Virus record (IMG/VR): IMGVR_UViG_3300002231_000068
Strand: one strand, 5' to 3'
Source: an uncultured virus (IMG/VR IMGVR_UViG_3300002231_000068)
Lineage: Duplodnaviria > Heunggongvirae > Uroviricota > Caudoviricetes
DNA length: 64,000 bases
Shown here: in pieces, positions 3,726 through 49,719 of the stretch
Layout of the letters: each line of letters begins with the position of its first letter
Position numbering within the stretch: position 1 is the first letter of the stretch
Translations under genes and position numbers: made by a program
The notes under the pieces: model-generated
Databases searched by the model: none
The model's input: the letters and a program-made list of their open reading frames with translations, nothing else
Told to the model about the DNA's origin: nothing

Positions 3726-5735
3726 CTAAAATTCTTCTTCTTCCCATCGTTTCGTGTCTGCTAATTCTTGTTTAACTATCTCACGTGCCTGTCTAACAGT
3801 CATTTGAGCTTTGTTTCTTAATTCATTAACAGTTTTCTTTTTAGTCCAATCAAAATCTATTGCACTCTGTAGTGTAGTTTTTACAATCTCAAAGTTTGCT
3901 GAGTTTATTCCATCTGGAAATTTCTTTGGTTCTAAGAATGCTTGCATATCTGATTTCTTTGATAATGATGTACCTTTACCACTTGATGGTGAGCCTTGAC
4001 CTATACCACCTTTATCAGATGGTCTTTGTTTTTTTGGTTTACCGTCTATTTCTTGCTGGTCTTCTTTTGGAGCTGCTGTACCTCTACCACGACCTTTTGA
4101 ACCACTTGTATTTGGTTTCTTATCGTCTTCGTTATTACTTTCTAACATCATCATTGTAGGGTTTATTATTGGGTTTTTAGATACTTTAAACTCACCAGTA
4201 TGTGTTCTTGTAACTTCGAATCCCATTCCTTGCATAGCTGCCATGTTTTGTATCTCTACTCCTTGTATCTGCAAGTCTCTTAATTTATCGTTTTCTTCAC
4301 CACCCTTTAGTCTTAATTCCCAATCATCCACATCTAGAAGTTTTGCGAATTTTCTTAAGAATGCTTGTTGTAATATATCTTGACCCCATTTAATTGCTCT
4401 ATTTGTAATTGTAACTTGTAGTCCTTCTTGAGACCAGCCTGATGGTAATTCACCGAAGTATAATGGTAGTACACCAAAGACTGCACCAATGATCATTCTA
4501 ATTTCTCTTCTTATTTCTGTAAATTCTAATTCTTTTAATGAACCTGTAAAGTCAATCCATTGTGCCATATTTTTACCACCTTTATCAGATTCTACTAATA
4601 ATGGGTGTATCATGTATGGGTCTTCGGTTGCTTTTTGTTCTAATACATCCCATGATTTTCTGAATGTTTCATAGTTACGAGATGCAATAACTAACATACC
4701 TCTAGGAGGTCTCATCTTATCAAAGTATTTTCTAATATATTCATCCATATGAGATAAGGACATAGCCTTTGACCATATAGAGTAAATTGGAGAATAACCA
4801 TAAAGTAAGGATGGTTTGTATTTGCCTGCTTTCCATATAACTTCACCTTCACCATAAACTACACGTTTTGGTTGAGGAATTCCTATAGAATATACAGAGT
4901 TAACTTCAATGACTGCTTTAAGTGCTTCTGCACCACACCTATCACATTTAGGTACATTTAATCTTCTATCTCGATGTTCAAATCTTGGGCATACAAACAC
5001 TTTATTTCTTTTATCATCATAACCTATTCTACCATCAGAGTCTGCAATGAGTGCGACTTGTGGGGGGTCTATTCTAAGTAACTCTTTTACTTCAGATGCT
5101 TGATGGTCAATCTTACCAGTTCTATCATCTATCTTATAATTTTTTAATATTAAACAGTATGCATTATCTGCAATTTCTAAGTCTCTCTCTAACTGTCGTG
5201 TCAAATCTTCTAATGTTTGTTCGTTTCCATTAATAGGATTTACTAATAAATTCTCTAGTTTCTTTCTATTTTCTGGTATAGGTCTTAACATTTTATCACT
5301 ACCACATGTATCACATTCCATTTCTTCACTCTCGTTTAACTCATGTGCGATAGCTTTCTTAGCATCATTTCTTGGTAGGGATTGTGATTCATTATCTGCA
5401 TTTTGTTCAAATGGTTGTTCGTCTTTGTGGTCACCTTTGATTGGTTTGTATTGAAATTCTTTACCACAATTCTCACATTTAAATTTCCATTTTTCTACAA
5501 CCTCGAAACCATTCTTAAACATCTCTCTGTTTAAAGTTTCAATAGGTATTCTTAATGCATCAATATTATCTGCTAACTCATAAATCATTATGAGAGGAAA
5601 TGGAAAAATTGGTAATTTAGCACCTGTATCGGTACTCATATAGGGTGTTGCTACAGAAGGTCTAGTGGTTCCTTCAGTATATGATTTATTACTAAACCTA
5701 GATGCAAATGCACTTAGAGTATCTTTAAATCCCAT
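3726..5735 (-). CDS. Portal protein with zinc-ribbon insertions
   Basis: Portal-like motifs (RDLEIADNAY, LYGYSPI, YFDKMRPPRGML, IGAVFGVLP); upstream of prohead protease; extra CENC/CDTC and CPRFEH/CDRC motifs. Confidence 0.85.
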   Translation of the reverse strand: MGFKDTLSAFASRFSNKSYTEGTTRPSVATPYMSTDTGAKLPIFPFPLIMIYELADNIDALRIPIETLNREMFKNGFEVVEKWKFKCENCGKEFQYKPIKGDHKDEQPFEQNADNESQSLPRNDAKKAIAHELNESEEMECDTCGSDKMLRPIPENRKKLENLLVNPINGNEQTLEDLTRQLERDLEIADNAYCLILKNYKIDDRTGKIDHQASEVKELLRIDPPQVALIADSDGRIGYDDKRNKVFVCPRFEHRDRRLNVPKCDRCGAEALKAVIEVNSVYSIGIPQPKRVVYGEGEVIWKAGKYKPSLLYGYSPIYSIWSKAMSLSHMDEYIRKYFDKMRPPRGMLVIASRNYETFRKSWDVLEQKATEDPYMIHPLLVESDKGGKNMAQWIDFTGSLKELEFTEIRREIRMIIGAVFGVLPLYFGELPSGWSQEGLQVTITNRAIKWGQDILQQAFLRKFAKLLDVDDWELRLKGGEENDKLRDLQIQGVEIQNMAAMQGMGFEVTRTHTGEFKVSKNPIINPTMMMLESNNEDDKKPNTSGSKGRGRGTAAPKEDQQEIDGKPKKQRPSDKGGIGQGSPSSGKGTSLSKKSDMQAFLEPKKFPDGINSANFEIVKTTLQSAIDFDWTKKKTVNELRNKAQMTVRQAREIVKQELADTKRWEEEEF

Positions 5736-5797
5736 ACTAATAAACACTTAATAACCCCAATATATAAACATTATGTAACGTTTTTGTAACTGATTTG

Positions 5798-5923
5798 TTA
5801 CTGTTTATCGCCATGGTCTGAACATTCAACGTTTCTGCTACCAGTACAAGAACAAGAAGACTTACTTACCTTCTTCTCTACTTTCTCAGAGGTTGACTCA
5901 GATTCTATAATTTTGTCTGCCAT
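5798..5923 (-). CDS. 41-aa Cys-containing small protein
   Basis: MADKIIESESTSEKVEKKVSKSSCSCTGSRNVECSDHGDKQ; TATA box ~28 nt upstream. Confidence 0.5.
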   Translation of the reverse strand: MADKIIESESTSEKVEKKVSKSSCSCTGSRNVECSDHGDKQ

Positions 5924-5961
5924 ATTAACAAATACATATAAACCTATAAAAAGATTGTTCT

Positions 5962-6080
5962 TTGTGTAGTAGTGTGAGCGAAAGCACGTCGAATTGGTAC
6001 ATCTCTATGTGTTCACACGGACATGAGATAAGAGCCACGAAGGTCTGGTGTTGCGAGCCAGCTGCACGATCTCCTCCATT
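5962..6080 (+). ncRNA. Candidate structured non-coding RNA
   Basis: GC-rich intergenic island; closing stem TTGTGTAGT/GCTGCACGA with G-U pairs, GAAA-tetraloop hairpin, ATCTC/GAGAT arm, CTGGT/GCCAG arm, 3' tail GATCTCCTCCA. Confidence 0.55.
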
Positions 6081-6123: not shown

Positions 6124-6303
6124 ATGGTAGAATTAGAACCAGAAGACTATAATGTGATACTTACTTGGTTCGAACATACATTCGGAAAACGAGCGTTGAA
6201 TGAGATGCCGTTGGATGCTAAACGTACTTTCTGGAAACTTACGTTCCTTGCTGAGGACAAAATGAAAGAAATACAAGAAACCGTTACGAAAGAAGACGAC
6301 TAG
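6124..6303 (+). CDS. Hypothetical protein (59 aa)
   Basis: MVELEPEDYNVILTWFEH...; followed by a hairpin and T-tract. Confidence 0.55.
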   Translation: MVELEPEDYNVILTWFEHTFGKRALNEMPLDAKRTFWKLTFLAEDKMKEIQETVTKEDD

Positions 6304-6311
6304 TTCTATGA

Positions 6312-6332
6312 GCCCGAAGGGCGAATTTTTTT
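6312..6332 (+). terminator. Hairpin plus T-tract terminator
   Basis: GCCC-GAA-GGGC then TTTTTTT immediately after the stop at 6303. Confidence 0.55.
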
Positions 6333-17861: not shown

Positions 17862-18809
17862 ATGTCGCAAAATGATGTAAAATATCTTGAAAAAGTTTCT
17901 GAGAATAAAGAAGATGAAGTTATTGGTAGAGTTAATACCATAAACTTTGATGAATATTCTCCAGAAAATATTGATGACATGGGTAACTACATTGACCTAC
18001 ATGGTGAACGTAAAAGACTCGAACGTGTCATTGACCGTGCTGACAAACCATATCTTATCTATGGTGCTAAAGGACTTGGTAAAACTTCTTTAGTTCATGC
18101 CATATGTAGAGATAAAGGTATAGCCTTAGTTGAGTTTAACTGTGGCGTCGGTACAAATAGAAGCGATTTACAAGGTAGACTACAAGTTGACAAAAATGGC
18201 TCTTATTTTGAAAGAGGACTATTGCCTACTGCTTTTGAAGTGGCTAATCACTATGGACATGCATGTCTATATGTTGATGAGGTTGGTGCTCTGGAAGAGG
18301 ACATTCAGAAATGGGTTAACAGACCATTTGATAAGAGGGCTAGTTGTAGTGCTGGAGGTAAAACCTACAGACTAAAAGAAAATTGCAAATTAGCAATAGT
18401 TCTAACAACAAACCCAGTCGAATATGCTGGAGTAAATAACCTAACTGAAGACTTAAGAAGTCGTTTGATTGGTTCTGTATGGGATTACCCATCTGTTGAA
18501 GAGGTAACAAGAGTAGTTGATTGGACTAATATTCCAGAGGCTACAGTAAAGTCACCACTTTTAACACTTGGTCAAGATACATACAGTTTAAGAACAAAAG
18601 GAAATATAGAATATGTGTTGTCTCCTAGAGACTTAATACAATTCACTGAAGTGTATCGTGATTTATTAGAAGATATGCCAGAACTAGATGACGATGAACT
18701 CCTTGAAACAACAATCAAAGAGACAGTTCTTATCAAGTATACAGACCCAAACGAAAGAGAACTAGTCAAAGCAAGAGCTAATGAAACATTTGGGGTAAAT
18801 CTCAAATGA
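17862..18809 (+). CDS. MoxR/CbbQ/CobS-like AAA+ ATPase
   Basis: Walker A GAKGLGKT, Walker B LYVDE, TTNP..YAG..L.EDLRSR, LSPRDL. Confidence 0.85.
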   Translation: MSQNDVKYLEKVSENKEDEVIGRVNTINFDEYSPENIDDMGNYIDLHGERKRLERVIDRADKPYLIYGAKGLGKTSLVHAICRDKGIALVEFNCGVGTNRSDLQGRLQVDKNGSYFERGLLPTAFEVANHYGHACLYVDEVGALEEDIQKWVNRPFDKRASCSAGGKTYRLKENCKLAIVLTTNPVEYAGVNNLTEDLRSRLIGSVWDYPSVEEVTRVVDWTNIPEATVKSPLLTLGQDTYSLRTKGNIEYVLSPRDLIQFTEVYRDLLEDMPELDDDELLETTIKETVLIKYTDPNERELVKARANETFGVNLK

Positions 18810-18843
18810 CCCATAATTTTTTTAATAATAGGGGGTATATCTA

Positions 18844-19152
18844 ATGGTACGCTGTAAGATATGCTCTAGAACTAGATGTAGGGGTGGTGCAAAAGGTGCA
18901 TGTTGGAGAAAATATCAACTATGCCCTGTGTGTGCCGTAACTGAACATCCAGAAGATTACAAACCAAACTTTATTCTAATGACTATGAGTAAAGCTGGTT
19001 ATTATAAGTCTGCAAGAAAAAGAAATAAAAACCATGTTGGTGGTTCTGTTAATAATATGAAGAACTATGGTAAAACTAATGAGTTTGGTAAAAGAGTTAT
19101 CTCTACAGACTATCTAAACAAACAAAAGTTTGAGGAGCTTAACCATGAATAG
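18844..19152 (+). CDS. Basic Cys-rich hypothetical protein
   Basis: CKIC and CPVC motifs. Confidence 0.55.
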   Translation: MVRCKICSRTRCRGGAKGACWRKYQLCPVCAVTEHPEDYKPNFILMTMSKAGYYKSARKRNKNHVGGSVNNMKNYGKTNEFGKRVISTDYLNKQKFEELNHE

Positions 19153-19268
19153 TTATGAACAATTAGAATATACCATGTGTTCTAACTGTAGTTTAGAAGT
19201 ACCAAAATGGATGATAGAAGGTGGTAAATGTAAACAATGCCGTGATTGGTTAGAGGAGGAAGAGGAAA

Positions 19269-21017
19269 ATGGCTAGAAACCGTGATTTATTATCTGACAA
19301 AGAATTCTTTCGTAAGACAGCTGATATTGCTGAGCATGTGAGAGAATGTAAGATTGATATATCTTATTGGGATGATGATAATAAAGTCATAGATAAAGAC
19401 CTTAATACAAAAAAAGAAAAAAGTAAAAATTATATTTTAAATGTAGCAACACCAGCCGTTAAAGGCTTAGAGAAGTTTACTGCATTTAATCATGAAATAG
19501 GTCATATTATGATGCAAACACCTATGCCAGAAATGAGAATGTTATTAGATAAATGGACTGAAAAAGATTCAACACGTTTAGCTCATGCAAAATATGATAT
19601 GATGTGGGATATGATGAATGTTCTTGAAGACCAAAGAATAGAATCTATGATGGCTAAGCTTTGGTTAGCAAACTCTAAGAGATTTGAAAAAGCAAGAAGA
19701 AATCTTGGTAAAAAATTCACAAGAGGAATGATACATAATAATCCAACTGATATATTATTAATGCATAGATTTTATAGAAGTGCATTAGTAAATGGAAAAG
19801 AATATAAACATTCAAAAGAGCTTAAACAATCATTAGATGATGTTATAGGAACTGGTAGACTAGGTGTATTGGTTGTAATGAGACGATTAAAACATGTTGT
19901 AGATGATTATTTTAAAGATTTTCAAAAGAAAATGGATAAAAAGGCATTAGAAACTCTTAAACAAGGTCATGGACAATTAACTAAAGGTGAACAAACACAT
20001 GAAAGAACTGCTGGTGATGGTAGAGATACTAGAGAATGCTCAAATAAACCTGAAGATTCAAAAACAGCCGAAGAGGATATAGAAGAAATAGCAGATTCAA
20101 CTATTGAAGAAGCTGAAGAATTACTTAATGAGTGGAAAAATGCTGGTGAAGATGAGGTTGAAGAGATAAGAGATTCTATGTCTGAAGAATCAACAAGTAG
20201 TGAACAACCAGTACCATCTTATGTTTTAAGAGTTAAAAGAGTACCAAGTAATAAAATAGATTTAGACGATGATACAGTTAATGGTTTAAAGAAAGTGTTT
20301 AGAGCAATCACTGAAAAATCTAGACCTGTAATAGGTTATGATGGTGATGAAATAGATATGGAATCATATATTGAGAATAAAATACGTGGTTATGATATGG
20401 GTAGATGTTTTAAAGACTTGAAAAAACATCAAAAAGCATCTGTTCTTATTAGTATCGATGGTTCAGGCTCTATGGAGAATGGTAGAATAGAAATTGCAAG
20501 GCAAATAGTCGCATCATTATTTGCTAGTGTTAAGCATTATCCAAATGTAGAGTTAAAAGCTAATGTTTGGTCATCTAATACTAGGGGTGGATGTAGGCAT
20601 TACTGACATCAATAACCTAGAAGAACTGTAAAAATAATAGTAACACAGAACGATAGTCAATGTATGATGACACCTACACATTTAGCCTTAGATTATTCAG
20701 CAAGGCAACTTAAGAAAATGAAAGGTAAACAGAAACTTATGATATTAATAACTGATGGGCTTCCACAATATCAAAATAATTTCTATACTTTAAAAAGAAC
20801 TCAACTTGCATCGATGAATAAAAAGGCTCTAAATAAAGCAAGAAGGTCTACATCAAACGTCATAATTGTCTCTGTAGGTATGAGTCAATATGGAAGATAC
20901 TTCTTAGAAGAATGTTTTGGAAGAAAGAGAATAATGAATGTGAATTCTATGTATGAAGCTTCTGATGTAGTTGTAAGTAAATTTCAACATTTAGTTAAGT
21001 CAACACTGTCAAGATAG
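19269..21017 (+). CDS. VWA-domain partner of the AAA+ ATPase with N-terminal HExxH domain (split by an indel near 20585)
   Basis: HEIGH, NVLEDQRIE, MIDAS IDGSGS in the first ORF; TP and ITDG in the second ORF (20664-21017). Confidence 0.8.
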
Positions 21018-34839: not shown

Positions 34840-36228
34840 TCACCCAAACAGTGATTTTTGAAGGTTTTTACCTATATCAAGGACATGCCATTGATTTCCA
34901 CCAGCAACTGCTTTACATGCTAACACTAAACTATCTGGATAGTCATCGTGTTCTTCAGATTTTACTTTCATTATTCCACCCTCAGTATATTCTCTAGTAA
35001 GATATGATAATTGATATATTAATTTATCAACATTTTTTAATGATATCTTATGGTTTTCAAACAACAATCTAAGATTCTTATACATACTAGCCTTTTCTTG
35101 TAGAGAAAATATAACACCCCTTGCTGGTATATCTTGTTCACGTGCCAAGTCTATTAGACCACCACCTAACCCAGTTTCATCTATGAATACAGTTTCTAAT
35201 CTATAATCCCTAACCATCTCACCTATCTTACCACACACATCTACTACATTTGATTGTGATTCTGCTAGTGTTTCATGAACAAATACATGGTCATCCTCAT
35301 CAACAGATACTACAGTGAAAACAGTTTCATCTCTACCTGAACGTGCTACATCCACGCCCATGTAATATTGAACTCTACCTTTAGGATTTTTATCATTAAC
35401 AGCTTCTCTTAATAATGAGTGAGGTATTAATGCATTACCTATATCCAAGAACTCTCCCTCGACTTCTTGTACATATTCTTCACGTGTTAAACGTTTAATT
35501 TCATCTAAAAAGGTAGGGTCTTCTGCTACTAAAGGGTTATCTGTAGACCTTACATGAAACTCTGTCCATAAATTTTTTGGGTCTTTCAGTTTACTATTTT
35601 GACACGCCTCATAAAAATAACCAGATTTACTAAACGGTGTTGATGTTAACCATACCCTAGCCTGAGTAGCCATACCAGAAGGTAAGAATGCTTTAAGAAT
35701 ATCAGTCTTAATGAAAGAACATTCGTCTGCTATAATACAGTGAGGTGAATAACCCCTAAGTGTAGTACCGTGTTCACCAGTAGCCCTTGTTACTATCTTA
35801 CTCATACCAGTATTATCTAAGAAATTTACCCACATTTCTGTCTGTGTATTTCTTACAACATATTGCTTTAAGAATTCATTTCTTATTATTAATGATCTAA
35901 TTCTATCGAACATAATTCCAGCCTGATTTTGTGTAGGTGCAGCTATTACTATAGTACATTCATGTTTTACAGTCTTTAACATTAAAGGTGCAAAAAATGC
36001 AAAATGTATAGCCTTCACTGCTGTTGACATAGTTTTACCTACCTGTCTACCTGAACGATACACTATGAATCTATCTTGACAGTCAACATATTTCTTATTA
36101 TAATCAAACACATCATGGTCTAGGAAAATCTTACTGAACATTGATGGACTGTCAGCGCAGTCTGCTATAGTCTGCAATAGATTTTCTCTATCTTTTATGA
36201 CATCAGCTTCTGGTCTAGGCAAATTCAC
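34840..36228 (-). CDS. terL: Terminase large subunit
   Basis: Walker A SGRQVGKT, Walker B IIADE, STP, nuclease motifs GVDVARSGRDETV and HDDYPDSL. Confidence 0.95.
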   Translation of the reverse strand: MNLPRPEADVIKDRENLLQTIADCADSPSMFSKIFLDHDVFDYNKKYVDCQDRFIVYRSGRQVGKTMSTAVKAIHFAFFAPLMLKTVKHECTIVIAAPTQNQAGIMFDRIRSLIIRNEFLKQYVVRNTQTEMWVNFLDNTGMSKIVTRATGEHGTTLRGYSPHCIIADECSFIKTDILKAFLPSGMATQARVWLTSTPFSKSGYFYEACQNSKLKDPKNLWTEFHVRSTDNPLVAEDPTFLDEIKRLTREEYVQEVEGEFLDIGNALIPHSLLREAVNDKNPKGRVQYYMGVDVARSGRDETVFTVVSVDEDDHVFVHETLAESQSNVVDVCGKIGEMVRDYRLETVFIDETGLGGGLIDLAREQDIPARGVIFSLQEKASMYKNLRLLFENHKISLKNVDKLIYQLSYLTREYTEGGIMKVKSEEHDDYPDSLVLACKAVAGGNQWHVLDIGKNLQKSLFG

Positions 36229-40298: not shown

Positions 40299-40664
40299 CT
40301 AATATGAATCCTCTATTACAAAAGCAAATGATTTGGTTTGTTCAACCATGACATTTGATGAATTTTTAATCTCAACTTCACCCTCCCAAATACCAGCGTT
40401 AGCTATTGCTGTGTCTGTGGCACTAAGTTGATATGTGACAATTCCATTTGGTCTATCTGAAAATGTTAATGAGCCATTTATTACTAATGTACCATCTGGT
40501 TTCCAAACTTTCCATGAGCCTTGGTTATATGTAGTTGCATCATTAAGTACCTTAGCACTGCCTGATGAATCTTTAATTGTTAATTGTAAGACAGCTCTTG
40601 AGCCAGATTTGACTCTATATTCCACCGAATTTCCTACCATGTTTGCGCTTGCTGGACTACTCAT
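40299..40664 (-). CDS. BppU-like baseplate/Ig-like virion protein
   Basis: KPDGT, NGIVTYQLSATDTAIANAGIWEGEVEI pattern. Confidence 0.65.
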   Translation of the reverse strand: MSSPASANMVGNSVEYRVKSGSRAVLQLTIKDSSGSAKVLNDATTYNQGSWKVWKPDGTLVINGSLTFSDRPNGIVTYQLSATDTAIANAGIWEGEVEIKNSSNVMVEQTKSFAFVIEDSY

Positions 40665-43600
40665 TATCTTCATCTTTTATATTATTATCTCGTTTATAAA
40701 GATTTCCAGACTTGCTTCTATCATACAATTTTTGTGCTTTCTCTTTAGCCTCGGTTGAAATTGATTTAGCTTTCTCAGCCACTCTTTCAGCTTTACTCTT
40801 AACTTCATCTTTCAATTCCTTACTATTCATATATATCTTAATAGATTTATCTCTCAATGCTGTTACAACATCAGCTGTCTTCTTGTGTGTTCTTAGTGTG
40901 TTTTGTACAACTGATGAACCTATTGAACCAGTAACTAATCCAAATCCAAATCTTACTAATAATAAGAATGATTCTGTTACGTGTACGGTTTCATTTATTA
41001 TTAGTATTAAGTTATTGAATACGTTTCTAAACTCAGTGATGTTTACACCTTCAGTTATTACCTTAGATAATCCTAGTTGTTTTGGTATTCCTTCTATGAT
41101 ATGTACAATAGCAGTGTCTACTCTTACCAAGTCTCTTAGTCTTTGTCTGAACTGTGTTACCGACACACTGTCTGTGACGTGTCTCAATAACTCTCTTACT
41201 CTTACAATAGTTTCTGAGATGTTAACAGTTTCATCTATTACTCTTATTATATCTACTAGTTTACCTTGGAATTGAGATACGTTAACAATCTCATTGATAA
41301 TTCTACTCAACTCTCTGGTTCTTATTACAGACTCAGTGATGTTAACTGCATCTAATGCAACCGTTCTTGCTATGCCTTGAACCTTGGCAAATCCTTCTGT
41401 TATTGTTACGATGTCTGCTATTGATCTAAACTTTCCTATTGCGAACTTTGTGGTTTCAGTTATACCTACAGTCTCATTAACTATAATTCTGATTAACTCT
41501 CTTACTCTACCTCTGAAGTCATCTATTATTACAGAGTCTGTGATATGTCTGATTATATCTCTTACTCTATTAACTATATCAGATACGTTTACATTATCAG
41601 ATAATATTCTACTTAACTCTCTGGTTCTTAAGACAGATTCAGTTATTGATACAACCTCACCTAATATCTTGGATATTGCATTATGTCTAACTAATCCTTC
41701 AGATATTGCAACAGATTCATTAACTATTATTCTGATTAAGTCTCTTAATCTACCTTGGAATTGAGATATTGTTACAGACTCTGATATGCTTCTTATGACA
41801 TCCCTTGCTCTGTATATACCCTCCCACATGATTACAGATTCTGTTATTATTCCAAATCTGTTTCTGATAGTATCTAAAGTATCGTTAGTATTGATAGTAT
41901 CTGATAGTATGCGTGATATCTCTCTGAATCTGTTAAATGATTCTGTGATACTTATTGTTGCATCTGTTATTGTTCTTGAAATTATTCTTGCCTTTGTTGC
42001 ACTCTCTAATACATTAACAGTTTCAGTTACAACTATTCTAATTAAGTCTCTTACTCTACCTCTAAAGTCTTCTACAGTAACCGTATCAGATATGATTCTC
42101 ATTAAGTCTCTAACTCTATCTACAACTTCAGATGTACTTACAGTGTCAGTTATCACTCTAGACATCTCTCTTATTCTTACCAGTGATTCTGTAACACCTA
42201 ATGATTCAGTTACAGTTCTTACCCTACCGAATATTCTTACCAGTGATTCAGATATATCTATAGTTTCAGTTATTATCTTAACAAGTTCTGCTACCTTACC
42301 TTGGAACTGTGTTACATTAACAACCTCATTGATAATTCTGTTAATTATTCTTGTTCTTAATACACTCTCAGTTATTATGACAGACTCACCGATAGTTCTT
42401 TGTAAGAAGTGTAGAATCTTTGTAACCTCATTAATATTAACTGTCTCGTTAATTATTCTCATTAAGTCTCTAACTCTTACTATTGCTTCTGTTATACCTA
42501 CAGATTCACTTATAATCTTGACCAGTTCAGCTACCTTGCCTTGGAATTGAGATACGTTAACAATCTCATTTATGATTCTGTTAAGTACTCTGGTTCTTAA
42601 TACATTCTCAGATATTGCAACAGACTCGTTAATCATTCTCATGATTACATATTGTTTAACGGCTGTTTCGGTTATCTCAACAATGTCTGCTACTGCTTTA
42701 CTTATTGTCTTAAAGTGTGGAACTATGTCAGAGACGTTGACAATTTCATTAATTATTCTCATTAATGTTCTTGTTCTTACTAATGATTCAGTAACTCCTA
42801 CAGTTTCAGTTACAACCATTCTGATTAATTCTCTGGCTCTACCTCTGAAGTCTTCTATTGTGATTGATTCTGATATTGCTTGGAACCTATCTCTGAATAA
42901 TACCATTACATCTGTTAGTCCTATTGATTCACTAATCATTCTGATTAATTCTCTTGATCTACCTACAATCTCTGTTGTATTGACATTATCAGATATTGTT
43001 CTCATTAATGTTCTTACTCTTACTAATGATTCAGTTACTCCTACATTATCAGCAACACTTCTGAATTTCTCAGTTAATCTTGTTATTGATTCAGAGATTA
43101 ATGTACTCTCAGATATCATTCTTATTAATCCTCTAACCCTTACTAGTGATTCAGATACATTAACAGAGTCTGCTATTGTTCTTGCAATTACTCTGAACCT
43201 ACCTTGGAATATATTAATTGTTACAGAGTCACTGATAGCCCTTGCTAATTCTCTACTTCTGTTATTAATTTCTGATGTACTTACACTATCTGCAATTACT
43301 CTTGAGATTACTCTTACTTTATTAACTGCTTCAGTGATGTTTGTAGCATCTACAACAGTTCTCATTAATGTTCTAACTCTAACTATTGGTTCACTTACAG
43401 AGATGTTTTCAGTAACACTTCTGAACTTTTCTGTGAATCTTGTTATTACATCACTTACACTTATAGGTTCACTTAACATTCTAATTAAGTCTCTTACTCT
43501 GTCATTTGTTTCTGTAATACCCACCGTTTCTGTTACAACTATTCTTATTAGATCTCTTACCCTACCTCTGAAGTCTTCTATAGATAAGGAGTCACTTAAT

Positions 43601-46600
43601 ACTCTTATGATTTCTCTTATTCTTATTAGTGATTCATTAATTCCTACAGAGTCTTCTACTATTCTCATTAATGTTCTGATTCTTACAATAGTATCACTGA
43701 TGTTTGTAGACTCTGATATTATTCTAATTAATGTTCTTACTCTACTTACTGTTTCAGATATACTTACATTTTCTGCTATCGTTCTAATTATTTCAATCTT
43801 CTTGAATAGTGATTCAGATACAGATACACTATCACTAATTGTTCTTATAACTTCCCTTGATCTCTTATTGAGCTGCCATATACTTACAGATAGTGATTCA
43901 GTAAATACTCTGATTAATTCTCTTGATTTTATTACAGCTTCATTAACTGATACACTTTCTGCTACATGTCTAATTAATGTTCTTATCCTATCAGTTCCTT
44001 CAGATATATTGATTGTTTCTGTTATTGGTCTAGCTACCTCTCTGAATCTATTGAATACTTCAGTTATTCCTATTGATTCTGATACCCATCTGATTAATCC
44101 TATAGCGTATTGGTTTGTCTCGCTAACAGATACATTGTCTGATACAGTTCTTGAGATTACCCTTGTCTTTTTCTTGTACTCCTTGGAATATAGATACTGC
44201 AACTGATTCTGCAACATTCTTGAATTTGTTTAATAGTCTACCAGTTGTTTCTACTATAGATACATTGTCATCAACAATTCTACTCATCTCTCTTGATTTA
44301 TCTACAGTCTCATTGATGATTACTGCTGGCTCTGTAATTGTTTTGTTGAATGTTCTTACTGGCTGTGAAGATTCTCCAATAGATACATTCTCTATTACAG
44401 ATACGAATGTGTCCTTCTTAACAGATATTGATTCTGTAATTCCTACTTCATCTATTACATAGTGGTTTAGTTCCTCTATGTGTAGAGGTGTTCTTGTTGC
44501 AAACACGTTATGCTGGAATATGTTTTCTTGATATATCTTGGTCTCTTTCTCTTCAATGTCAGATTTGTAATATGTTCTCTGGAATATTGCCTTTGGATAA
44601 CCAAATGAAGGTTGCTGGAATACATCTGTTTGGAATATTCTGTATACTAAGTTTCTATCAAATATGTCACCTTGGAATATATCGCTTTGGTAAATACTAC
44701 TGAATACTTTCTCTGTCTTTTCTCTACGTCTACCACTTGGGAATATTGTGTATCTGTCTTGGAATACATTACTTTGGAATATGTCTGCTTGGAACGGATT
44801 GTATACAAATGAAACAGTTCTCCATCTGAATGGTACTGTAGTATCTATAGACTTTACAGTATCTAATATTACCTGTACCTTTTGAATAACCTTCTTTGTT
44901 GTTTCTATTAGTGTTACATTCTCAGCCACTGATACTGTCTTACCCTTACCAGAGAATGTTGTCTCTGTAATACCGACACTATCGCTTGCAGTCTTAACAA
45001 ATCCAAATCTATGTGCTTCACTGTCTGTAACTCCGACTGTATCATATATCGATTGTTTGATAACAGTAGGTGCTTGGAATACATCTGCTTGGAATACTTT
45101 CTGTTGGAATATCTTTGTCTGTACCTGTCTAGTATCTCTAACTTTCTGGAATACATCTTGCTGGAATACATCTGTTTGGAAAGTGTTAGGTATTGTGGTT
45201 GTAACAAACTGTTTCTGGAATACATTACTCTGGAATACATTAGATTGATATACTTTCTTAACAGTTGTACTAGATGGATCCCATAGTTTCTGGAATACAT
45301 CACCATCAAATATATCAGTCTGGAATATTGCTGGGATAGTAAATATTACTTGTTCTTTAAACTCTTTAGTGTAAGTCTAATATTTCTACACTATCATTGA
45401 CTGTAACTGATTTTGGTGTTGCCCTTGCTAGTGTTTCAGATATTGCAATATTTTCTGTTACTGTTGCTTTAACTGTCTTCTTTACAATAGAGTTAACTTG
45501 TTCTGATATTCCTACACTGTCAACCTCTGTCTTAACATCTCCCTTTACTATTGTTATTACATCTGTAATTCCTACAGTGTCATATACTGCCTTTGATCTA
45601 CCTATTGCAGTTTGGAATACATTGCTCTGGAATATGTATGGCTGGAATACAACAGTTGATTGTTTTAATTTGTTGAATGCTTCTGTTGCAAATATACTTG
45701 ATTGGAATACTCCACTTTGGAATAGTGCTGGTATAATATCTGTAGTAAATGATGCAGTTTGGAATACATCTCCATCGAATATGTTAGACTGGAATACTTT
45801 TGTAACAGTTGTACTAGATGGATCCCATAACTTTTGGAATATATCTTGGTCAAATATATTTGTCTGGAATACTCTTGGAATTGTAAATATTGTTTGTTTC
45901 TTAAATGTATCTGAGTAAATATCTTTTACTATAACATTTTCTGTTAATGTAACTGCCTTTGGTGTTGCCCTTGCTAGTGATTCTGTTAATGAAATAGTAT
46001 CTGTTACTGATTTACTAATTGTCTTTCTTACAACACTGTTAACTGCTTCATTTATTCCTACACTATCTACTACAGATTTTACAAATCCTTCAATCTTTAA
46101 TGTTGCTTCACTTATTCCTACATTTTCTATTATAGTCTTTGGTCTAGGTATTGCAGATTGGAATACATTAGATTGGAATACGAATGGCTGGAATACAACA
46201 GTTGATTTCTTTAATATGTTAAATACATTTCTTGTAAACACTTTACTTTGGAATATATCTGCTTGGAATATTGCTGGTTTTAGATGTGTACTGTATGCTT
46301 TCTGGAATACATCTTGGTCAAATATATTTGTCTGGAATAGTTTAGTAATTGAAGTACTAGATGGATCCCATAGCTGCTGGAATACATCATTATCGAATAT
46401 GTTTGTCTGGAATATTCTTGGAATTGTGAATATTACTTGTTTCTTAAAGTGATCTAAGTAAGTGTCTATTATACTTACAGTGTCATCAACAGTTACAAAC
46501 TTTGGTACAGATCTGTTATTTAGTTCTGTAATTCCTACAATGTCAGTTACACTCTTTGTTATTGTTCTTTGTTTTAATACACTAACAGTTTCAACTATTC

Positions 46601-49600
46601 CTACAGTGTCAGATTCTTTCTTTACAAATCCTTCTACCTTGTTTGTTGTTTCTATTATTCCTATTGTATCATATACAACGTGTGATTTACTGATTGGTGC
46701 TTGGAATACATCAGAGTCAAATATGTATGGCTGGAATACAAATGTAGATACCTTTCTTGTATCATATTCTTTTTGCCAGAACAAGCCAGCAAATACATTA
46801 GATTGGAACGGTGATTGTATGATGAATTTATTAAATCCAGTACCAAACACATCTGAATCAAATACATTACTTTGGAATATTCTTGTAATAAGCCTATGCT
46901 GGTCGTATCTCTTCTGGAATATATCTTGGTCAAATAGATTAGTCTGGAATACATTGTTAACAAAGAATTGAACTTGTTTATCTTTTATTGCAGTTGTTTC
47001 ATCTATTCCTATTGATTCACCTATTGCTAGTTTCCATGTTCTTTGTTTGAATATTGGTGTTGTATCTACAACAGACACACTGTCGTTAACACTTCTTGCA
47101 AGTGTTCTTGCTCTAGATAATGTTTCTACAATATTGATAGTATCTGCTGGTCTCTTAGATGAACCAAATACAACTCTTAATGTTTCAACTATATTCTCTA
47201 TTTCTTCAAGATCTTTCTTTATTGGTGCTGGTGATTGGAATAGTGGGTATTGATAAATACCTGAGAATACTGGTCTTAATGCTGTGACAGCAGTATCAAA
47301 TGCTTTGGTCTGGAATAATTTGTCTTGGAATACATTGCTCTGGAATAGTTTCTTAACAGCACTTGATGTTTGGAACCTTGCTTGGAATATATCAGATTGG
47401 AATATATTTCTCTGGAATAATCTGTTAAGTGGTGCTGTCTTATCAAATGTTTTCTGGAATATATTACTTGCAAACACATTAGTTTGGAATATAGAACCTA
47501 CAGTTCTTTCTAATGGTTGTAGTTTTTGCTGGAATATATCTGACTGGAATACATTGCTCTGGAATATTATTGGTTTAATTGCATTCTTATCATATGTTTT
47601 CTGGAATACTTTATTATCGAATACGTTAGACTGGAATATTTTATTTACATAACTTGGTGTTATTGCATAGTGTTTTGGTGTACCAGATTCATTTATGTTA
47701 ACACTATCTGTTAATGTTCTTAGTATTGTTCTTGCTCTTACCACTAATTCATTTATGTTTTCTAACTCTGATATGTTCTTATACCATGGGAATACAACAC
47801 TTTCTGTAACACTAATATTTTCATTAACTACTCTTATTCTTTCTATTGGTTTTAATCTAAACTCAGTTGTATTAACAACTTCATCAACTACTCTTACAAT
47901 ACTTCTTATTCTTTCTGTTGTTTCAGATACATTGATTGTTTCATCTATCTGTTTATGTTTCTTGTAAGCAACTGTTTCACTAACATTAATATTGTCTGAT
48001 GATAATCTAACAATACCAAATACTTTTGTAAATAGTTCTGTAATACCTATTGTATCACTAGATGTTTTTACGAAACCTTCACGTGGAACTGCTACATCTG
48101 TAACTCCTACAGTGTCTGTCACTGATTTAAATACATCTGTAATTATTCTTTTTGCAGTTGTTTCTGTAATTCCTATAGAATCTAATGGTGATGTCTTAAC
48201 AACTGGTACACTTGTTTGGAATACTAAGTTTTGGAATACACCTATCTGGAATATGTTTTGTAGTGAACCAAGTATTGATTTTAGATATCCTTTACTTTGG
48301 AATACAGTACTTTGATAAATACTACTAAATACTTTTGATACTGTTTGTGGGTTAAATGCTTTCTGGAATATGTTTTGCTGGAATACATTTGTTTGGAATA
48401 CTTTAGTAATTTCAGGTCTACTAATTAAGTATCTCTTTTGGAATATATCTTGGTCAAAGATGTTTGTTTGGAATAATTTAGCTACAACNTTTGGATCTCT
48501 TACAGATTCACCCACTGTATTTTCTGTTACAATTAATGTATCTGCTAATACTTTATTCTTACCTATTGCAATGTTTACACTTTTCAGTTACACTCAAACT
48601 ATCTGTTGATGGTGTATCTGATAAGTCTCTACCAGTTGCATTCTCAATGTAATTGTTTTGTTCTGTAATACCTACACTGTCAGATATTGTCTGTGGTCTA
48701 CCTTTAGCGAACGAAATAGATTCTGTAATACCTACGTTATCTAATGATAATTTTTCTTTCTCTATTGTTTGATGGAATAAACCTTGCTGGAATACGCCAG
48801 ATTGGAATACACTTCTATTAACTGTTGTTTTATTATAAGCAGTTTGGAATACATCACTATCAAATATACTACTGAATACATTTGGTACACTCTGTACGTT
48901 AGATGCTTTCTGGAATATGTCTTGCTGGAAAACATTAGTCTGGAAAACTTTTGGTGCTGATTCTCTAACTCTCTTATACTTAAACTGGAATATGTTACTT
49001 TGAAATATGTTATTTTGAAATACCTTAAACACATACGTTGTGTCTGTTTTAATATTATAAACTGTAAATTCGACTATGCTTTCTACATTTTGCAGTGGCT
49101 TACTCCGAGCCCTTGTATGATAAAATGCCTCAGTTATTCTTTCTAAATCTTGCCTTGATTTTGTTTTACCCATGACCTTGTATACTTGCATAACAAGTTG
49201 TACTGCGTCATATGTTATTCTTGGGAACCCTATTGCTTTTGGTTGAGTTTCTTGTACTCCTATTATTTCTTGTATTACTTTAATTAGTGAGTTTGGTACA
49301 TCAAATATATCACCTTGGAATAAACCAGATTGGAATACATATTTACCAGCGTTAGCTACTTGATATGTTTGGAATAATACATCTTGGAATATGTTTCTTT
49401 GGAATAATTGTCTTGGATAAACATTTATTATGTGAGGTTGCTGGAATATATCTGTGTCAAATATGTTAGACTGGAATATTTTAGCGATAGTTCCATATGA
49501 TATTTGTGTATATTGTTTTTGGAATAATAACTTACTGTTGTATGTTTTTTGAAATATGTTTGTTTGAAATGGGTTTCTTATATATGTTATAGATGTAGGT

Positions 49601-49719
49601 GCTTGTTGAAATAAATCTGAATCAAAAATAGACCCCTGAAATGTTTTACCAAGTGTCTGATTTATAGAGAAAAGATCATTATCGAATAGGTTAGTTTGAA
49701 AAACCTTTAGGAAAGCCAT
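40657..49719 (-). CDS. Giant (~3000 aa) repetitive virion/fibre protein, split by three apparent indels (~48585, ~45372, ~44170)
   Basis: Continuous FQxNIFQ pentapeptide blocks and ~19-aa (I/V)xE(S/T)VxIxE repeats across all consecutive ORFs. Confidence 0.7.

Follow-up and report, generated by a model that had tools for sequence, protein, structure and literature searches.

A structured non-coding RNA with tRNA-like architecture in archaeal viruses, bacteriophages and Nitrososphaeria

What does a GC-rich island beside the portal gene of an uncultured head-tail virus encode, and what might its product do? The window, meaning the whole 64,000-nucleotide stretch analysed here, encodes a portal-like protein, a large terminase and a recombinase of the archaeal RadA type, and we take Marthavirus to be a candidate name for the virus. 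Its host is presumably a marine ammonia-oxidising archaeon, because the viral genes, the leaderless TATA promoters, the host range of the RNA and a portal 70% identical to that of the window virus in a Nitrosopelagicus bin (L241) all point that way. The island (GC 49%, compared with about 30-38% in its flanks) sits in a 200-nt gap at the genome strand switch, flanked on one side by the divergent gene for a Cys/His peptide and on the other by a 59-aa gene. A preliminary description, whose sequence and coordinates were correct, had read it as a multi-stem RNA of the plus strand. The features of the locus are the following:

3726..5747, minus strand: portal-like protein gene (PF04860, E 3.3e-6, under the curated cut-off)
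5798..5923, minus strand: divergent leaderless gene for a 41-aa Cys/His peptide, without Pfam match
5930..5942, plus strand: putative archaeal promoter of the RNA (A-rich BRE, TATAA at 5937-5941; consensus match only)
5963..6068, plus strand: tRNA-shaped non-coding RNA, whole conserved element (106 nt in the window, about 62-66 nt in most relatives)
6068..6078, plus strand: 16S-like tail GATCTCCTCCA, lineage-specific and outside the conserved RNA
6124..6303, plus strand: conserved viral gene of 59 aa (MVELEP...), leaderless; a TATA box of its own separates it from the RNA
34840-36228: large terminase (Terminase_6N + 6C, RNase H domain)

The 59-aa gene could be assigned to no family, and an atlas search returned only unnamed clusters below 0.9. 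In many viruses the gene divergent from the RNA encodes a tiny Cys/His peptide (CxC...CxxHG, often with His-rich repeats), and some host copies (e.g. L201, L204, L239) have an unrelated 32-aa Cys-rich peptide at the divergent position and a 35-aa basic peptide downstream; all of these are below the usual annotation length. Directly past the stop of the 59-aa gene lies a hairpin with a CCGAAGG core (6308-6326, plus strand), the only such site in the window. It recurs in 31 of 75 distinct viral loci, with stems that vary freely yet stay paired. GAA or GNA triloops with a C-G closing pair are a usual feature of very stable DNA hairpins, and this one may serve as a signal in DNA or as a terminator close to the strand switch. 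In L076 and L080, from a clade without the RNA, a hairpin GAGGTGC-GTA/GAA-GCACCT lies just upstream of the portal start, with the portal promoter region on one side and the next gene on the other. Elsewhere in the window, several very long repetitive proteins (40657-49719, minus strand; 268-1186 aa; repeats such as FQxNxF and V/I-x-E/D-x-V/I) are probably virion surface proteins or tail fibres, and at 17862-21017 (plus strand) a MoxR-like AAA ATPase is followed by a vWA-domain protein, identified by eye and apparently split into two ORFs (19269-20606 and 20664-21017).

Folded as a single sequence, the element is no more stable than chance (MFE -31.6 kcal/mol, z 0.14, equalled by 106 of 200 shuffles); the structural evidence comes from homologues. 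Covariance models built without the window copy find the element as their sole match in the window, with 44.3 bits (E 1.7e-11) and, in a second search, 46.2 bits. Homologues were gathered in several ways. Eighty loci were fetched via the portal protein, of which 12 were left out for too short upstream DNA and 68 were counted. A pattern derived from the portal-locus elements gave at least 120 viral matches and 94 matches in species genomes, 91 of the latter titled Nitrososphaerota or Thaumarchaeota. Two matches in bacteria-titled genomes look misbinned (the core of L254 equals that of the thaumarchaeal copy L211, and L284 resembles viral copies). With a relaxed pattern, the covariance model confirmed 31 of 38 matches in viral contigs (7 dropped) and 63 of 119 in metagenomes (56 dropped), and at least 264 distinct copies were parsed in all. 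Weak model matches in L498 (inside coding sequence), L337, L349, L410, L439 and L521 were judged false. The Rfam scan suggested in the preliminary description returned no family over the element, either with Rfam 15 at the gathering score over the window or at E up to 10 on four stretches; one overlapping lncRNA fragment model (E 1.1) is a chance overlap. Blastn of INPHARED cultured phages with three queries likewise gave no real match.

By comparison among these copies, the RNA is a four-way junction with the architecture of a tRNA, composed in the window of the following parts:

5963..5969, plus strand: 5' strand of the closing stem P1, at acceptor-stem positions 1-7 (an extra pair 5962:6069 is possible)
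5970..5971, plus strand: U8-A9 linker (U invariant, purine at 9)
5972..5988, plus strand: D-like arm, 5972-5975 paired with 5984-5987 (G10-C25, U11-A24, G12-C23, U13-G22)
5976-5983, plus strand: D-like loop GAGCGAAA (6 nt in most relatives); unpaired G26 follows the arm's stem at 5988
5978..5980, plus strand: kissing triplet G-C-G of the D-like loop, paired with 6052-6054 (mutual information z 8.8 and 8.4)
5989..6040, plus strand: arm P3 at the anticodon position (basal 3 bp covary; 52 nt here, 7 to over 50 nt family-wide; loop unconserved)
6041..6044, plus strand: 4-nt variable loop A44-G45-G46-U48 (45 covaries with 25; G46 invariant)
6045..6061, plus strand: T-like arm (CTGG/CCAG stem; 9-nt loop N-N-U-N-R-C-K-A-N with a U-turn-type UNR)
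6052..6054, plus strand: kissing triplet U-G-C of the T-like loop, partner of 5978-5980
6062..6068, plus strand: 3' strand of P1, with CCA absent after the stem

In a MAFFT alignment of 60 copies made without reference to the structure, pairing holds in 97.9% of 1260 cells, and the covariation of 0.627 compares with 0.201 after shuffling and at most 0.141 with slid partners. RNAalifold recovered the cloverleaf unaided from the same alignment. In a structure-fitted alignment of 82 diverse copies, 97.4% of 1715 cells are paired. The top 13 column pairs by mutual information in 92 viral copies are all stem or loop-loop pairs, in a parse that required pairing in the last arm only. All seven pairs of the closing stem show both-sided changes, its sequence being free and its pairing kept, and so do three of the four pairs of the T-like stem, whose arm measures 17 nt. 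The closing stem has a mode of 7 bp in archaeal viruses (28 of 98) and of 6 bp in hosts, and reaches at least 12 bp in 15 of the 63 other copies. The D-like stem, in the register given by RNAalifold, is 100% paired in 82 copies and has no both-sided change. An earlier register (U11-R26), slipped by two bases relative to that of RNAalifold, was rejected; three variant types (L324; L335/L427; L453) break it and keep the RNAalifold register. The covariance models R1 and R2 were built on the dropped register, and imposing the nested stems of the family on the copy in the window, also in that first register, cost 3.1 kcal/mol before any kissing energy.

Paired columns outside the D-like stem hold 211 G-U and 24 A-C cells (407 and 24 with the two D-stem rows included). 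Together with the covariation in homologues, this strongly supports a structured non-coding RNA read from the plus strand, as had been proposed, and we consider it almost certain that the element is a real structured RNA. Most of the helices first drawn by eye hold as well: the long arm stands as a helix position (5989-6040), and covariation confirms the CTGG/CCAG arm (6045-6048 with 6058-6061) and the closing stem from 5962-5969 with 6062-6069. The ninth pair originally given to that stem, 5970-6061, is wrong, as 5970 is the U that never varies and stays unpaired, and 6061 belongs to the pair closing the last arm. The GAAA tetraloop hairpin drawn at first is confined to the window and its close relatives L001 and L002; the family pairs its G5978-C5979 with the last loop.

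The two variable pairs of this loop-loop contact form in 90 of 90 and 88 of 90 copies, and on a portal tree of 110 proteins they share at least 10 and at least 13 changes, compared with 4-6 for three control pairs. At the elbow, GYN of the D-like loop meets NRC of the T-like loop in 3 bp. The rest of the core follows tRNA closely. The cloverleaf spacing matches that of tRNA (7 bp, 2 nt, 4 bp, 1 nt, arm, 4-5 nt, 17-nt arm), and the kept core positions comprise U8, R9, G10-Y25, U11-A24, R26 facing A44, and the invariant G22 and G46. Among 34 real tRNAs in the fetched loci, U8 is found in 30, G10 in 27 and Y11 in 27. Positions 25 and 45 covary (mutual information z 4.7); of 157 copies, 77 have U25/G45, 54 have C25/A45, 24 have C25/G45 and 2 have other combinations. 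In tRNA, base triples are formed by 10-25-45 and 13-22-46; the 25/45 covariation and the unvarying G22 and G46 are what such triples would require. By analogy with tRNA, the RNA probably folds into an L held by base triples of this kind, and it may descend from a tRNA.

It is not itself a tRNA. With the tRNA family (RF00005) it shares the four-way junction, the order of parts, nearly equal lengths, U8, R9, G10-Y25, Y11-R24, R26, G46, U55, R57 and a D-loop/T-loop contact, as well as a place inside phage tRNA arrays. It differs in having neither the 7-nt anticodon loop on a 5-bp stem nor G18-G19, TψC, A58 or an encoded CCA, and in its 4-bp T-like stem with a 9-nt loop, its three Watson-Crick loop-loop pairs and its variable closing stem. 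The consensus loops are NNUNRCKAN (T-like) and GAGYNU (D-like), whereas 33 of the 34 real tRNAs of these loci have TTCRA. The RF00005 model misses the RNA, and so does ARAGORN, which made no tRNA call on any copy.

The 3' tail had first suggested another function, an anti-Shine-Dalgarno mimic that masks host mRNAs led by a Shine-Dalgarno sequence. The tail GATCTCCTCC (6068-6077) does match the 16S-end 10-mer at 9 of 10 positions, at a frequency that chance explains: the window holds three such matches with 1.76 expected, and 27 of 100 shuffles reach three. Among the copies, a match of at least 8/10 follows 3 of 98 from archaeal viruses, 0 of 103 from hosts and 0 of 62 others; the three (3 of 263) are those of the window, of L001 and, in differing form, of L002. 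The closing stem ties up the first two bases of the tail, the remainder of which lies beyond the conserved element, and a conserved single-stranded CCUCC at the 3' end of the RNA was not found among the copies. Anti-Shine-Dalgarno mimicry is therefore refuted as the function of the family, and we leave it next to no probability.

The putative promoter places the expected RNA start at about 5963-5964, at the first paired base, and overlaps the promoter of the divergent gene. A TATA-like box at -29 to -22 precedes 87 of 103 copies from hosts and 86 of 98 from viruses, where the background is 9-11%. In viruses the divergent promoter occupies the same DNA, which makes the host figure the cleaner of the two. 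Counted from the first paired base, the host upstream profile reads A at -33/-32, T at -27, A/T at -26, T at -25, A at -24, A at -23 and T at -1, and the register is the same as that before the ATG of the leaderless neighbour gene. Comparison of the copies establishes that this register is conserved, which suggests that the RNA is transcribed. Three RNA runs yielded no contig over the element; they are no evidence either way, because the virus was barely present in them, with less than 1/10 of the sampled words occurring there.

The same runs, and the position of the element at the strand switch, could be cited for a hairpin signal in DNA or a coding constraint in place of an RNA. The preliminary description had named a 24-codon minus-strand ORF as something that could, if conserved, account for the conservation. 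In L001, the closest relative, this ORF is cut short after its fifth codon; minus-strand ORFs of any kind occur in 14 of 98 copies, with unrelated peptides, and the element lengths are spread over the three frames (28/35/35 of 98). With no conserved ORF, the excess of G-U over A-C, a covarying pseudoknot, a promoter in fixed register and copies embedded in tRNA arrays, a DNA-level or coding explanation is very improbable.

The neighbourhood of the portal gene could suggest a further role, in packaging. A related element lies beside the portal gene in 58 of the 68 portal loci, and in 76 of 80 long-flank pattern matches among the matches listed. A pRNA-like RNA for packaging or capsid assembly, whose loops would pair between molecules into a ring on the portal, would account for this position and for copies near head genes in two unrelated phage groups. 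Like phi29 pRNA, the RNA is a viral non-coding RNA with two mutually complementary loops, the hallmark of pRNA according to PMC5066667, and pairing within and between molecules is indistinguishable in these data. The pRNA described in that source is a three-way junction, essential and limited to phi29-like motors, whereas the present RNA is four-way and dispensable and occurs in cells and in a virus with a large terminase, whose RNase H domain replaces pRNA (PMC5066667). Of 68 relatives, 10 lack it at the locus, with four presence/absence changes on the portal tree, and a 100% complete 61-kb related virus has no match to it. Where present in the viral carriers checked, it is single-copy (9 of 9). 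Host chromosomes carry copies with an intact promoter, and a portal lies within 3 kb in only 1 of 94 host loci. Because of the losses, the host copies and the large terminase, an essential packaging role is excluded, and the packaging RNA offered as an alternative in the preliminary description is unlikely; we consider any pRNA-like role distinctly improbable.

Within Nitrososphaeria, at least 31 of 151 genomes carry the RNA, including at least 9 of 41 in one family; a phylum-wide search (9/151) added no copies beyond those of the class search, except for one false match. The host copies keep the pairing, and their neighbours differ in identity and orientation. In L300, L329, L330 and L331, second host copies are decayed, with broken stems or the kissing loop lost, which is the birth and death of an RNA gene. 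Within 3 kb of the RNA in 107 host loci we find a TFB-paralogue-like family (by eye) 24 times, KTSC 18 times and a Trm112-methyltransferase fusion 15 times, as raw counts in related loci without a background rate.

In bacteriophages, the copies lie behind tmRNA, between tRNAs or between co-oriented genes, some of them near head genes. Of the 63 copies from the relaxed search, 17 are at most 30 nt from a tRNA or tmRNA, as in L344 with the order tRNA-Leu, 5 nt, RNA, 11 nt, tRNA-Glu; these tRNA-adjacent copies all belong to a single group of related large phages and do not count as independent. No archaeal copy (0 of 201) lies within 30 nt after a tRNA end. In the large aquatic phages L340, L341, L351 and L372, the tmRNA upstream of the RNA is about 430 nt, longer than usual, with tags such as AEADEILAKFGYVEEEALQPVA. 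The carriers span two domains: besides archaeal viruses they include tmRNA-bearing phages and a phage of 46 kb that has head genes. Comparison of the genomes establishes both this distribution and the dispensability of the RNA.

Such positions recall self-cleaving RNAs, and the element could represent a new ribozyme class, with a four-way junction, an invariant core and a VS-type kissing loop, that processes phage tRNA arrays and late transcripts. Its core has 17 invariant columns in 66 diverse copies, an invariance partly imposed by the search patterns, and three scans that allowed other bases at positions 11 or 13 gave one match, which was false, and no genuine copies. A ribozyme needs no partner, which would account for the spread across domains. 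The last loop is laid out like stem-loop V of the VS ribozyme, whose I/V kissing loop, as described in PMC4138328, also has a U-turn loop and three kissing pairs followed by one loosely constrained (extruded) base; some copies even use the VS-type triplets GUC/GAC. The likeness ends with this module, and the RNA has neither the VS cleavage loop nor the A730 loop. Theta (HDV-like) ribozymes, according to PMC10879173, are likewise small structured RNAs directly 3' of phage tRNA ends. The present RNA follows tmRNA and tRNA ends by a few nt, yet its spacers to the upstream CCA are 8-13 nt, compared with +/-5 nt for theta ribozymes; it lacks the nested HDV double pseudoknot, and most copies are not linked to a tRNA. 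Moreover, the archaeal copies begin at the first paired base and would leave no leader to cut, and the invariant bases fall on tRNA core positions. We therefore regard a new ribozyme class as rather unlikely.

Purine riboswitches are also built from a junction plus kissing loops, and this likeness brings in a riboswitch-like aptamer that would act in trans, soaking up a metabolite, a metal or a defence signal nucleotide. The tiny Cys/His-rich peptide genes divergent from the RNA in many viral and some host copies, and its carriage by viruses of both domains, fit such a sponge. On the other hand, the RNA has no expression platform and no constant downstream gene, the viral downstream gene having its own promoter; it holds no constant leader position before functionally related genes, and no Rfam riboswitch matches it at E up to 10. 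An aptamer of this kind seems slightly less probable to us than a ribozyme.

We tentatively favour a trans-acting tRNA mimic over the other readings, on account of the match to the tRNA core and the position within tRNA arrays: the RNA would be a decoy for a host protein that handles tRNA. This reading ranks above the new ribozyme, the free aptamer and the pRNA-like role, in that order, and the remaining probability goes to other protein-binding roles. A cis role is excluded because the neighbours are variable and the promoters separate. The tRNA mimic would have a free-standing small RNA gene. Archaea and their viruses would transcribe this gene from a TATA/BRE promoter of its own, with the start at the first base of the closing stem. 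In the large bacteriophages the RNA would share a transcript with tRNA/tmRNA arrays or late operons and presumably be excised along with its neighbours. The mimic would take a tRNA-like L fold that keeps the D-domain core, replaces the GG/TψC elbow by a 3-bp U-turn kissing pair and turns the anticodon arm into a spacer. In trans, it would occupy a host protein or machine that reads the tRNA body and elbow, not the anticodon; candidate targets are a tRNA-attacking toxin or nuclease, a tRNA sensor and a processing enzyme. Translation would thereby be spared in infected or stressed cells.

As carriers occur in both domains, the partner should be universal or absent. We looked for it among neighbouring and co-occurring genes. 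Of 32 genomes with the RNA, 5 carry KTSC, as do 6 of 32 without it, and KTSC was rejected as a partner; no protein family is common to viral and host neighbourhoods, save two weak cases. TROVE, rejected as well, is above cut-off in 0 of 39 RNA carriers, with the control positive in 2 of 14. The latter result bears on the Y RNA YrlA (Chen et al. 2014, PMC4201824), described there as a non-decoding tRNA mimic also found in phages, with a circularly permuted order (T-AS-D), tRNA-type T and D loops, the Ro60-binding motif GNCGAAN0-1G and a place near Ro60. The present RNA would share the mimicry and has none of the permuted order, the tRNA-type loops and the Ro60 motif. On the archaeal side, NCCA after the stem was found in none of the 104 viral and none of the 107 host copies, and the phage copies do not encode CCA even where the phage's own tRNAs carry it. 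With no CCA, a variable closing stem and a T-like loop without TTCGA, standard aminoacylation and the action of some tRNA enzymes are unlikely. Thus the absence of CCA, the variable closing stem and the lack of a partner gene all count against the mimic, as does the lack of a transcript in RNA runs where the virus was barely present; an invariant core, moreover, suits a ligand pocket or a catalytic site equally.

Several RNAs that are tRNA-like or lie in tRNA arrays have no decoding function, among them mascRNA/menRNA, the tRNA-like domain of tmRNA and the stable RNAs species I/II of T4. MascRNA/menRNA and the tmRNA domain keep the TψC arm and gain CCA; neither was matched in Rfam by the element. 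The RNA would work like a tRNA mimic yet belongs to none of tRNA, Y RNA, pRNA and theta ribozymes. We found no description of it in the literature open to search, subscription journals lying outside it, and the accessible part of a 2025 preprint on Nitrososphaeria viruses does not mention non-coding RNA. Fremin et al. 2023 (PMC10690425) report 8495 unnamed IMG/VR candidates, three of them with thaumarchaeal hosts, and the motif may be among these, uncharacterised.

Few structured RNA families come to light in archaea, and the present family spans archaeal viruses, bacteriophages and about one fifth of the Nitrososphaeria genomes searched, whose bearers are central to the marine and soil nitrogen cycle. 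A wider proposal, and a more doubtful one than the mimic itself, is that of a tRNA-derived class common to archaeal and bacterial viruses and ammonia-oxidising archaea, which discarded the anticodon, remade the elbow as a kissing pair resembling codon and anticodon, and serves in both domains as a decoy against antiviral or stress systems that target tRNA. With about 65 nt and cultured carriers according to record titles (Nitrosotalea bavarica, Nitrosopumilus salarius), the RNA is directly testable. Self-cleavage, if true, would make it a new ribozyme class. As a molecule that keeps the tRNA core and solves the elbow differently, it offers a natural test of what makes the shape of tRNA, and the decoy role, if true, would add an RNA weapon to the conflict between viruses and hosts over tRNA.
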